64,000 bases of DNA, from assembly GCF_058153355.1 (NCBI RefSeq), contig NZ_CM177019.1. The stretch is one strand, 5' to 3'. This document shows, in pieces, positions 35,038 to 51,130 of the stretch; position 1 is the stretch's first letter; the number at the start of each line of letters is the position of its first letter. The position numbers and the translations under genes were made by a program. The notes beneath the pieces were generated by a model, which did no database searches, was not told the origin of the DNA, and was given only the letters and a program-made list of their open reading frames with translations.

Positions 35038-36465
35038 TCACCCGAACAGATGGAGTATTTTCCCTATCAAACCGGCAAAGATAAAAATGTAGAAAATAAT
35101 TTTGATGACGCCCAGGCAGCCCGGCCCACCATCGTCAACGGGCATCGACTGCGGTTGCGGCTCCGGTTCGACGGTTTGCTTCTCGGTAAAATTTGCCGCC
35201 TGAATTAATAATCGACGAATCATTAATGCTTCCAGTGGACAACGATCTTCTGCATCAAGGCGGCTGACGATCGGCATTAATGATTCTTCTGTCGGTTGGC
35301 TGGCCTGAACTAATTGTTTAGCAACTAAATATAATGGCCATAAGGGATGTTCTGTATCACGCGTGAGTGAGATCCGCGGCTTACGTCCTTTGTGCAAAAC
35401 CATCTCGACCAGAGAACGCCCCAGCGCAGAGAGTTTTTCATCACTGAGTATTTCGTATAAATGAAAACGCGTACGAGCGCTGTCACCAGGGACATAAAGT
35501 AGCGGTTTTCCCTGATCGTTAACCAGATCACGCGCTTCAATCATCATCACCACTAACGGGTAATAATCGACCCGATGCTGACGGCACCATTGCAACATTA
35601 AAGCATCCGCCTGGGTGGAGGGATACTCGCGCCAGTAGTCACAAAGTTCTGCCAGCAGGCTTTCGCCTTCTCCACAATAGACGCGTTGCGCGTATTCATA
35701 ATAACGCGCATCTTCATTATCAGGTTCAGCTTCCCGCCACGATCGGGCGTAATCCAGAAGTTCGGGGATATCCAGACGGCTTGTGCTATACCAGCGGAGT
35801 AAATTTTTGTGCAAATTTGCATCATCGGGGATAATCACTGCGCGATGTTGCGCTAAATACAATGTCAGCCATTCTGGATGCGATGACCAAATCCGAGCGA
35901 ACATTTGGTAAAAATCAATGGTGTCATTTTGTACGGCAACGGGCAGATGCAGAATGGTCTGGAAGTTAAAAACATTCCCCTTCGCAATGGCATATAAAAA
36001 GGATTCCAGTTCTTCTTCGTCTATTTCCCCGACGTTTTCCTCCTGCAACCACCGCAATCTTTCTGCTAATAACACCACGCACTCGAAGGATAAATGGGCA
36101 GTGTTCATAGCTATTGTGCACAGCGACCAGCGTAATTCATCAATATCTTCCATCGAGCAATAATTTAATTGCTGAATGAATCGCTGCCAGGCAGAGGGCA
36201 GAAAACGTTCGCTATCAGAGGCGAGTAACGCACGAAAGGCGAGCAGAATTTCATGTTCTGCAACTTCATGTTCTTCTGGTTGCCAAACAGATTTAGCAGG
36301 CGACTGCGCAATCCGTAGCGCGTCCTCATACGCCTGACGAAGTTGTTTAAAACCCTGCGGTTCGGTTTCTGGATGAAAGGACGGTAACAGCGCCAGATAA
36401 GCGCGGCGGATAATATCGACGTCAGTCGTTTCCTCTATTTCGAGAATATTCCAGCAATTTTTCAT
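35038..36465 (-). CDS. djlB: DjlB, tail-anchored J-domain co-chaperone (475 aa)
   Basis: N-terminal J-like domain (HPE in place of canonical HPD) and C-terminal hydrophobic tail [23 protein letters not shown]. Confidence 0.9.
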
Positions 36466-48690: not shown

Positions 48691-49779
48691 ATGCGTAAGC
48701 AGTGGCTCGGGATCTGCATCGCGGCAGGAATGCTCGCGGCATGTACAAGCGATGATGGTCAGCAACAGACGGTAAGTGTACCGCAGCCTGCGGTATGTAA
48801 CGGCCCCATAGTTGAAATTAGCGGGGCGGACCCGCGTTTCGAACCACTGAACGCGACGGCAAATCAGGATTACCAGCGCGACGGTAAAAGCTACAAAATT
48901 GTGCAGGATCCGTCTCGATTTAGCCAGGCGGGACTGGCGGCAATCTATGATGCCGAACCCGGCAGTAACCTGACGGCCTCTGGCGAAGCTTTCGATCCGA
49001 CACAGCTGACGGCGGCCCATCCAACGCTTCCGATCCCCAGCTACGCCAGAATCACTAACCTGGCTAACGGGCGAATGATCGTGGTGCGCATTAATGATCG
49101 CGGTCCTTACGGCAACGACCGCGTTATTTCGCTTTCTCGCGCAGCAGCTGACCGTCTTAACACGTCAAACAACACCAAAGTTCGTATCGATCCGATTATT
49201 GTCGCCCAGGATGGTTCGCTTTCTGGTCCTGGTATGGCTTGTACCACAGTCGCCAAACAGACTTACGCCCTGCCTGCACCTCCCGATTTAAGCGGCGGCG
49301 CAGGAACAAGTTCAGTGTCTGGCCCGCAGGGTGACATTCTTCCGGTCAGTAATTCGACGCTAAAAAGCGAAGATCCGACTGGCGCGCCGGTAACCAGCAG
49401 CGGTTTTCTGGGCGCACCAACGACCTTAGCGCCTGGTGTACTGGAAGGCAGCGAACCGACACCTGCGCCACAGCCCGTTGTTACAGCTCCGGCGACAACG
49501 CCTGCAACCTCGCCTGCAATGGTGACACCGCAAGCCGCCTCGCAAAGCGCTAGCGGCAACTTTATGGTGCAAGTTGGGGCCGTAAGCGATCAGGCGCGTG
49601 CGCAACAGTACCAACAGCAACTGGGACAGAAGTTCGGCGTCCCCGGTCGCGTAACTCAAAATGGCGCGGTCTGGCGGATCCAGCTTGGCCCATTCGCCAG
49701 CAAAGCCGAAGCCAGTACCTTGCAGCAACGTTTGCAAACCGAAGCCCAATTACAGTCATTTATTACCACCGCGCAGTAG
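48691..49779 (+). CDS. rlpA: RlpA, septal lipoprotein with DPBB and C-terminal SPOR domain (362 aa)
   Basis: MRKQWLGICIAAGMLAACT lipobox; Pro/Thr-rich linker; C-terminal SPOR-like region. Confidence 0.95.
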   Translation: MRKQWLGICIAAGMLAACTSDDGQQQTVSVPQPAVCNGPIVEISGADPRFEPLNATANQDYQRDGKSYKIVQDPSRFSQAGLAAIYDAEPGSNLTASGEAFDPTQLTAAHPTLPIPSYARITNLANGRMIVVRINDRGPYGNDRVISLSRAAADRLNTSNNTKVRIDPIIVAQDGSLSGPGMACTTVAKQTYALPAPPDLSGGAGTSSVSGPQGDILPVSNSTLKSEDPTGAPVTSSGFLGAPTTLAPGVLEGSEPTPAPQPVVTAPATTPATSPAMVTPQAASQSASGNFMVQVGAVSDQARAQQYQQQLGQKFGVPGRVTQNGAVWRIQLGPFASKAEASTLQQRLQTEAQLQSFITTAQ

Positions 49780-49785
49780 CGTAAA

Positions 49786-49853
49786 GCAGGCATCTGATGT
49801 GTCAATTTCTGTAAATGACGTTAACAAAGTCACGCGGAAAGTCAGATGCCTGC
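49786..49853. repeat. 12-bp perfect inverted repeat separated by 44 bp in the rlpA-dacA intergenic region
   Basis: GCAGGCATCTGA (49786-49797) and TCAGATGCCTGC (49842-49853). Confidence 0.4.
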
Positions 49854-49918
49854 CGGTAGTGCATTTGCTATAGTAGGGCACTTTTTTTAATTCCATCACG
49901 GATGTCGTAGTTCAGACC

Positions 49919-51130
49919 ATGAATACCATTTTTTCCGCTCGTATCATGAAGCGCCTGGCGCTCACCACGGCTCTTTGCACAGCCTTTATCTCTGCTGCAC
50001 ATGCCGATGACCTGAATATCAAAACTATGATCCCGGGTGTACCGCAGATCGATGCGGAGTCCTACATCCTGATTGACTATAACTCGGGCAAAGTGCTCGC
50101 CGAACAGAACGCAGATGTCCGCCGCGATCCTGCCAGTCTGACCAAAATGATGACCAGTTACGTTATCGGCCAGGCAATGAAAGCCGGTAAATTTAAAGAA
50201 ACTGATTTAGTCACCATCGGCAACGACGCATGGGCCACCGGTAACCCGGTATTTAAAGGTTCTTCGCTGATGTTCCTCAAACCGGGCATGCAGGTTCCGG
50301 TTTCTCAGCTGATCCGCGGTATTAACCTGCAATCGGGTAACGATGCTTGCGTCGCCATGGCCGATTTTGCCGCTGGTAGCCAGGACGCTTTTGTTGGCTT
50401 GATGAACAGCTACGTTAACGCACTGGGCCTGAAAAACACTCACTTCCAGACCGTGCACGGTCTCGACGCTGACGGTCAGTACAGCTCCGCGCGAGATATG
50501 GCGCTGATCGGCCAGGCGTTGATCCGTGACGTACCGAATGAATACTCGATCTATAAAGAAAAAGAATTTACGTTTAACGGTATTCGCCAGCTGAACCGTA
50601 ACGGCCTGTTATGGGATAACAGCCTGAATGTCGACGGCATCAAAACCGGACACACTGACAAAGCAGGTTACAACCTTGTTGCTTCTGCGACTGAAGGCCA
50701 GATGCGCTTGATCTCTGCGGTGATGGGCGGACGTACTTTTAAAGGCCGTGAAGCCGAAAGTAAAAAACTGCTAACCTGGGGCTTCCGTTTCTTCGAAACC
50801 GTTAACCCACTGAAAGTAGGTAAAGAGTTCGCCTCTGAACCGGTTTGGTTTGGTGATTCTGATCGCGCTTCGTTAGGTGTTGATAAAGACGTGTACCTGA
50901 CCATTCCGCGTGGCCGCATGAAAGATCTGAAAGCCAGCTATGTGCTGAACAGCAGTGAATTGCATGCGCCGCTGCAAAAGAATCAGGTCGTCGGTACTAT
51001 CAACTTCCAGCTTGATGGCAAAACGATCGAACAACGCCCGCTGGTTGTGCTGCAAGAAATCCCGGAAGGCAACTTCTTCGGCAAAATCATTGATTACATT
51101 AAGTTAATGTTCCATCACTGGTTTGGTTAA
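49919..51130 (+). CDS. dacA: D-alanyl-D-alanine carboxypeptidase PBP5 (403 aa)
   Basis: Signal peptide, SLTK active-site motif, SGN and KTG motifs, C-terminal amphipathic anchor. Confidence 0.96.

Follow-up and report, generated by a model that had tools for sequence, protein, structure and literature searches.

An inverted repeat in the rlpA-dacA intergenic region

The short intergenic region between rlpA and dacA contains a perfect inverted repeat, which raises the question of whether it acts as an RNA structure, as a terminator, as a binding site in DNA, or not at all. The window analysed here, a stretch of 64,000 nucleotides, originates from Escherichia coli: a 351-nt query spanning the repeat matches 5424 of the 5426 complete genomes at 95-100% identity, and the genes on either side of the repeat are annotated as rlpA and dacA in the matched E. 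coli genomes. Both mrdA and mrdB are found upstream of rlpA in the window, and together the three form a transcription unit, mrdA-mrdB-rlpA, that rlpA closes. The mrdA product is PBP2 and the mrdB product RodA, of the elongasome, whereas dacA encodes PBP5. In the list of open reading frames, rlpA spans positions 48691-49779 and dacA positions 49919-51130, both on the plus strand, leaving an intergenic region of 139 nt in which the RefSeq annotation contains no feature. The preliminary description of this locus had placed the repeat after the rlpA stop codon and upstream of dacA, which is correct, since rlpA ends at 49779 and dacA begins at 49919.

The repeat itself was confirmed as a 12-nt perfect inverted repeat with a 44-nt spacer. 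The left (5') arm, GCAGGCATCTGA, is located at positions 49786-49797 and begins 6 nt past the rlpA stop codon, and the right (3') arm, TCAGATGCCTGC, at positions 49842-49853, is the exact reverse complement of GCAGGCATCTGA. The spacer between them (49798-49841), which would form the loop of a hairpin on the plus strand, had been characterized as AT-rich. This is roughly right, with approximately 61% A+T, but it is not filler, since it contains positions that are invariant across 49 species (see below). The repeat is a single-copy sequence, present at a median of one place per E. coli genome and without a match to any Rfam family, in line with the earlier judgement that a REP can be dismissed. 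Of the 5424 complete E. coli genomes, 5269 share an identical 81-nt segment around the repeat. The sole match in Rfam 15 at a permissive threshold was to MIR477, a chance hit with E = 3.8 that scored 16.4 bits where the gathering score is 65. Like REP and BIME elements, which can stabilise upstream mRNA, the rlpA hairpin is intergenic and palindromic; unlike them, it occurs once, lacks the REP consensus and is conserved in different genera at a single orthologous position.

Perfect inverted repeats with arms of at least 12 nt and a loop of 3-60 nt occur three times in the window, versus 0.2 ± 0.45 times in 100 dinucleotide-preserving shuffles. Another of these repeats, at positions 35217-35286, has 13-nt arms (GAATCATTAATGC and GCATTAATGATTC) and a 44-nt spacer, and is located within a 475-codon minus-strand ORF (35038-36465), i.e., in coding sequence. 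Short palindromes do occur, and the presence of a repeat of similar kind in a coding region is what could be said for a chance palindrome devoid of function in the rlpA-dacA region. We give this explanation next to no credence, given that 0.2 such repeats are expected per window, that published RNA 3' ends map to the base of the stem and, above all, that the arms co-vary between species, which effectively refutes it.

Conservation and co-variation of the arms

The dacA locus was retrieved from 80 species of Enterobacterales, a set from which Salmonella and Klebsiella are absent, and the region from the rlpA stop codon to the dacA -10 element was aligned for 49 species of Enterobacteriaceae. 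The preliminary description had named missing conservation of the arms in close relatives as what would refute it, and across the alignment the arms are both conserved and complementary. The core of the right arm, GATGCC, is invariant or nearly so, whereas the left arm has higher column entropies and is more variable, yet stays complementary to the right one. For instance, the paired segments TCTGA/TCAGA of Escherichia and Citrobacter are replaced by TCCGA/TCGGA in Enterobacter. Co-varying arm pairs in Enterobacteriaceae further include GGCACCAG/CTGGTGCC, along with AGGCATCCT/AGGATGCCT in Pluralibacter, CTGGCACCAG/CTGGTGCCAG in Mangrovibacter and TGGCACCCG/CGGGTGCCA in Shimwellia.

Across the 49 species, 84.3% of the alignment cells of the 12-pair stem are paired, versus 30-37% when the partner is slid, and two-sided changes in the stem are found in 53 cells compared with 19 ± 6 in shuffles, none of 500 shuffles reaching the observed count. 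Stem pair 36/90, for example, is UA in 23 sequences and CG in 20. The duplex of cognate arms is also more stable than that of arms swapped between species (-25.7 versus -21.0 kcal/mol; 0 of 10000 permutations). The outer stem therefore displays what is generically expected of a conserved RNA, namely compensatory changes beyond those seen in the controls.

The kind of mismatch tolerated in the stem distinguishes the two strands. The nine core pairs comprise 373 Watson-Crick cells, 36 that are G-U on the plus strand and 6 A-C cells, the latter being equivalent to G-U on the minus strand, and the G-U wobbles are spread over many distinct arm haplotypes. This asymmetry, together with arms that drift and nevertheless remain complementary, suggests selection on the plus-strand transcript, i.e., the rlpA 3' UTR. 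Judging from the aligned sequences, the pattern of the arms is better accounted for by a stem in the rlpA RNA than by a dyad bound as DNA. The stability of the whole-arm duplex shows a modest bias in the same direction, with an average advantage of 2.4 kcal/mol for the plus strand, which is the more stable one in 32 of the 49 species; the Cedecea/Buttiauxella clade is an exception in which folding favours the minus strand. Part of the right-arm conservation is not RNA-driven, because it is confounded by the role of this arm in the promoter. Thus, of the two kinds of element initially proposed for the repeat, an RNA structure is upheld by the covariation, by the strand-specific wobbles and by RNA 3' ends that follow the helix, whereas a protein-binding dyad is disfavoured by the wobble bias.

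In the latter proposal, the arms would be bound as DNA by a regulator acting on the dacA promoter, such as BolA, with one site over the -35 element and one 56 bp upstream, perhaps engaged through looping. Binding of BolA to the dacA promoter region is reported in work cited in PMC4337573, and the ChIP-seq consensus of the protein is YYGCCAGH. The arms of the repeat carry GCCTG in E. coli, which differs at one position from the core GCCAG, whereas in Cedecea/Buttiauxella they have GCCAG itself; the right arm overlaps the predicted -35 element and the loop holds a conserved, dyad-like TGTnA-N7-TnACA. However, the BolA motif is weak and of low information, being found with one mismatch in 39.5% of genes, and the arms show no fixed half-site, since their sequences differ between species (GGCACCAG, GGCATCCT and others) with complementarity preserved. 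The left arm is also much less conserved than the right one, and one-sided arm changes yield plus-strand G-U six times more often than A-C, a bias that a dyad does not predict. We consider a regulator-binding dyad to be quite unlikely.

In other families of Enterobacterales, represented by Serratia, Rahnella, Brenneria and Edwardsiella, rlpA is followed by a different local hairpin, often with a U-tract. In Rahnella (three loci) and Brenneria (one locus), a short local hairpin followed by a U-tract forms a canonical terminator, and in Serratia (three loci) there is a 12-bp local hairpin without a U-tract. This looks like one locus switching between terminator types during evolution. The occurrence of different local hairpins after rlpA in these families suggests that some hairpin is generally required where rlpA ends, the long-range form being the solution of Enterobacteriaceae and, in part, of Erwiniaceae.

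RNA folding and mapped 3' ends

RNA folding had been recommended as a check on the repeat, and it returned a stable structure: RNA of positions 49780-49860 folds with -32.4 kcal/mol (z = -6.2), and none of 200 shuffles is equally stable. RNA ending at position 49864 has one dominant structure of -40.6 kcal/mol (z = -5.8), which accounts for 69% of the ensemble. In this extended helix, covering positions 49773-49862 of the plus strand in E. coli, the region of the rlpA stop codon pairs with the spacer between the -35 and -10 elements of the dacA promoter, and the mapped 3' end is therefore located only 1-2 nt beyond the base of the helix at 49862. Co-evolution is not significant for this outer extension (cognate -6.53 versus swapped -6.47 kcal/mol across the 49 species), and the inner helices of the loop in the E. 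coli fold are weakly supported across species, with 68% of cells paired versus 56% in the slid control.

The 3' ends in question come from two independent maps, both obtained from E. coli K-12. In the Term-seq data of Adams et al. 2021 (PMC7815308), an end at MG1655 position 664018 (-) is recorded in LB at OD 0.4 with 91306 reads and classified as 'orphan', and an end at 664017 (-) is given on the sheet of a second growth condition. In an independent TRS study, 664017 and 664014 are annotated as 'Primary rlpA' (PMC10687069). These ends correspond to plus-strand positions 49863, 49864 and 49867 of the window, where the placement of the Term-seq ends is based on the printed flanks, the 3' end being nucleotide 51 of 61. 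No Rho termination region is called near the hairpin in supplementary file 2 of Adams et al., where the dacA promoter itself would mask one. On the minus strand, an antisense or divergent RNA ends at 49780/49781 (MG1655 664101/664100 (+)) in both studies, with low read numbers of 1166-1788 in three conditions in Adams et al. 2021 (PMC7815308) and with a TRS signal of 0.906 (PMC10687069). This end is located 5-6 nt beyond the stem on that strand (GCCUGC-UUUACG) and is weaker than the plus-strand end.

A second, weak hairpin (hairpin 2; -8.1 kcal/mol in E. coli) is followed by a T7 run, the two together covering positions 49858-49888 of the plus strand and carrying the extended -10 element of the dacA promoter. 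A further TRS end, 663995, falls within this U-run at approximately position 49886 (PMC10687069). Hairpin 2 with T7 plausibly behaves as a weak intrinsic terminator of read-through and may represent the true termination site. Hairpin 2 was rejected as a conserved terminator structure, because its structure is not conserved.

Proximity of the 3' ends to the stem invites the question of whether the stem itself terminates transcription. The rlpA hairpin resembles intrinsic terminators, including bidirectional ones, in that a stem containing GC pairs comes after the stop codon, with 3' ends beside it on both strands, and also in that its minus-strand copy is followed by a short U-tract; the weak downstream hairpin with U7 behaves like a conventional weak terminator. 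However, intrinsic terminators combine a short loop of approximately 3-8 nt on a GC-rich stem with a U-tract of approximately 7-8 nt that contains the 3' end. The rlpA hairpin has a loop of 44 nt, which is far too long, its plus-strand 3' end lies in non-U sequence 10-14 nt beyond the 12-bp stem, and its minus-strand copy is followed by UUU only. On the plus strand, the main stem is followed by CGGUAGUGCAUU, without a U-tract. A scan with consensus promoter and terminator models, which cover neither extended -10 promoters nor bulged hairpins, gave no match. The long loop and the missing U-tract bear out the earlier statement that the repeat is not a simple terminator.

A non-canonical terminator or insulator has nevertheless to be weighed, in which polymerase coming from rlpA would stop on reaching the stem or immediately beyond it, perhaps with help from NusA/NusG, from Rho or from a polymerase parked at the dacA promoter. 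Such an element would prevent upstream transcription from occluding the dacA promoter and would be bidirectional by virtue of the minus-strand UUUAC. It would explain why 3' ends directly follow the helix on both strands, and would agree with the high stability of the stem, with the short U-tract in the minus orientation, with the AAAG that often precedes the left arm on the plus strand and with the canonical hairpin-plus-U terminators found at the equivalent place in related families. By contrast, the plus strand has no U-tract and the consensus terminator scan is empty, a hairpin with a 44-nt loop is slower to fold than those of terminators, and the 3' end in the downstream U-run means that part of the polymerases read through the stem. 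We therefore regard termination at the stem as unlikely, if still deserving of attention.

Overlap with the dacA promoter

The right arm of the repeat overlaps the predicted -35 region of a promoter. In PMC9338883, a promoter named PdacA-3 is described with a predicted -35 element, ATGCCT, and a predicted -10 element, TATAGT, and an 88-bp fragment starting at window position 49851 drives GFP. The predicted -35 element corresponds to positions 49846-49851 of the plus strand, inside the right arm, and the extended -10 element, TGcTATAGT, to positions 49866-49874; 75 of the 80 Enterobacterales loci have a motif resembling TGyTATAGT. The dacA start is predicted at 49880-49881, a placement based on the predicted PdacA-3 and on the promoter-active fragment, while the supplements of SMRT-Cappable-seq mention neither dacA nor rlpA. 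The right arm is thus under two constraints, as RNA stem and as -35 region, and therefore barely varies, leaving the left arm to adapt.

The loop contains conserved motifs of its own. TGTnA-N7-TnACA (49810-49826), which can also be read as a dyad-like TGT-N11-ACA, is conserved with fixed spacing in the 49 species, and AAAGTCA occurs twice (49826-49832 and 49838-49844), 12 nt apart, again conserved with fixed spacing. TGTCA is also among the conserved motifs of positions 49800-49844. A TTAACA-like sequence recurs in Erwiniaceae, where the architecture of the hairpin differs. We suggest that the loop motifs are probably DNA-level elements upstream of the dacA promoter, i.e., putative binding sites. 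Consensus spacings of candidate regulators are TGT-N10-ACA for CRP, TGT-N12-ACA for TyrR, GTAAA-N5-GTAAA for CpxR and an 11-bp period for PhoB. Sites for all four were rejected for TGTnA-N7-TnACA on spacing, by comparison with these consensuses by eye, and a Sigma-E promoter in the loop motifs was rejected owing to poor -35 and -10 matches.

The leader of dacA has several features of its own. Within positions 49866-49889, the extended -10 element is followed by a GC-rich discriminator and then by a T7 run (T6 in K-12), which would fall at approximately +2 to +8 when counted from the predicted dacA start; this single T-run doubles as the U-tract of the weak hairpin-2 terminator. A T-run near the start resembles the leaders of pyrBI, codBA and upp, which are subject to UTP-sensitive reiterative transcription; such regulation, if true here, would be notable for a peptidoglycan gene. 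Further downstream, the block CACGGA(T/C)GT(C/T)GT(A/T)GT in the dacA 5' UTR (49897-49915) is conserved from Escherichia to Edwardsiella. The dacA ATG has no canonical Shine-Dalgarno sequence nearby, the sole GGA being approximately 17 nt upstream. A mini upstream ORF, ATG TCG TAG, in the E. coli dacA leader was dropped from consideration because Citrobacter has GGACG in place of GGATG.

Possible divergent transcription from the dacA -10 element

The sequence TATAGTA at positions 49869-49875 reads as a -10 element on both strands, as TATAGT and TACTAT, and may represent a bidirectional -10. In the commonest arrangement of bidirectional promoters, the two starts are 18 bp apart (PMC12825309). 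The locus resembles promoters that work in both directions from one symmetric -10 (Warman et al.; PMC12825309) in that starts are predicted at approximately 49881 (+) and 49863 (-), about 18 bp apart; this likeness concerns the neighbouring -10 and not the inverted repeat, and the divergent start is a predicted one. The gap between rlpA and dacA is also spanned by a 47-codon ORF on the minus strand (49756-49899), which is unannotated in RefSeq K-12. This ORF is probably the counterpart of c0723 of strain CFT073 and of EDL933_0706, hypothetical genes that figure in two papers, and probably just reflects the antisense transcript.

These observations raise the possibility that the hairpin belongs to a pair of small RNAs, one a fragment of the rlpA 3' UTR and the other a divergent RNA of approximately 83 nt extending from about 49863 to 49780/49781. 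The two RNAs would be fully complementary, so that the antisense RNA could control the stability of the mrdAB-rlpA mRNA, or either RNA could act in trans. The antisense 3' end is robust in the sense of being found in two studies, and the -10 is symmetric with a predicted start spacing of 18 bp. In addition, in vitro transcription 'upstream of dacA in the opposite direction' has been described for c0723, and in EDL933 ribosome profiling is reported to yield antisense reads and the gap to hold a hypothetical ORF that is annotated. On the other hand, the antisense reads in Adams et al. are low (1166-1788), no Rfam family matches, and the wobble bias indicates selection on the plus-strand fold rather than on a minus-strand RNA; moreover, a literature search for small RNAs linked to dacA found none. 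A small-RNA pair thus appears very improbable. In the cis-antisense version, a predicted structured RNA of the same length may start from the symmetric dacA -10, be ended by the hairpin stem and pair with the rlpA 3' UTR. We consider it just as improbable that such an overlap makes the stability of the mrdA/mrdB mRNA depend on how active the dacA promoter is, or that a nascent hairpin, with the -35 sequence as its right arm, mediates cross-talk between read-through and dacA initiation.

A candidate protective stem-loop at the end of the mrdAB-rlpA mRNA

Taken together, our analysis argues, with reasonable though far from complete confidence, that the inverted repeat is a 3'-terminal, exonuclease-blocking stem-loop that defines and protects the 3' end of the mrdAB-rlpA mRNA. 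The repeat would form the stem of a plus-strand RNA hairpin in the rlpA 3' UTR. Transcripts passing the rlpA stop codon would end downstream, some at hairpin 2 and the U-run around 49886 and others possibly beyond, and exonucleases would then trim them in the 3'-to-5' direction until blocked by the stable hairpin (-32 kcal/mol for the core and -40.6 for the extended form). Trimming would leave the steady-state 3' end at 49863-49867, shielding the operon mRNA, and the hairpin would also limit the steady-state level of read-through RNA into dacA. On the minus strand, the same stem followed by UUUAC would end a short divergent or antisense transcript, either as a by-product or in a secondary role. 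We infer the exonucleolytic origin of the 3' end, as well as the actual place of transcription termination and the origin of the antisense RNA; the end at 49863-49867 could equally be a product of RNase E cleavage, as AU|UUG fits the preference of this enzyme, or of termination at the hairpin. The preliminary description had suggested an RNA structure controlling read-through from the operon into dacA; the evidence fits a constitutive element that defines and protects a 3' end.

Because the intergenic region comprises only 139 nt, the hairpin would have been built around the dacA promoter: the right arm would serve as the -35 region and the loop as promoter-upstream DNA, so that the left arm alone would be free and would track the right arm.

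A model of this kind was put forward for E. coli mRNAs by Dar and Sorek in 2018, in which stem-loops set steady-state ends after exonuclease trimming of transcripts terminated downstream (PMC6061677). In common with the protective stem-loops of that class, the rlpA element is a stable stem-loop just past the last ORF of an operon, the steady-state 3' end directly follows the structure, and no uridine-rich tract comes after the stem (PMC6061677). It differs in that its loop is 44 nt long, with possible inner helices, whereas loops of the class are typically a few nucleotides, and in that it shares its sequence with the promoter of the downstream gene, the right arm lying at the -35 element. Members of the class would also show longer 3' extensions in pnp/rnb mutants and Rho-dependent termination downstream; the rlpA hairpin is a candidate member on account of its stable stem-loop, its mapped 3' end and the absence of a U-tract.

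Implications

The element is of an ordinary kind in an unusually compact arrangement, and its mechanism is not new. The 3' ends themselves are already known from published supplementary tables, and our literature search found no description of the hairpin structure, of its covariation and conservation or of its superposition on the dacA promoter. The compactness of the design lies in the fact that one strand of the promoter region is at the same time half of an RNA hairpin, the free arm of which co-evolves. If our interpretation is correct, the operon encoding PBP2, RodA and RlpA would have a defined and protected 3' end approximately 20 nt before the promoter of dacA (PBP5). Replacing or moving the dacA promoter, or deleting the rlpA-dacA spacer, would then also remove the 3' stabiliser of mrdAB-rlpA, and such constructs could alter the levels of essential elongasome proteins.
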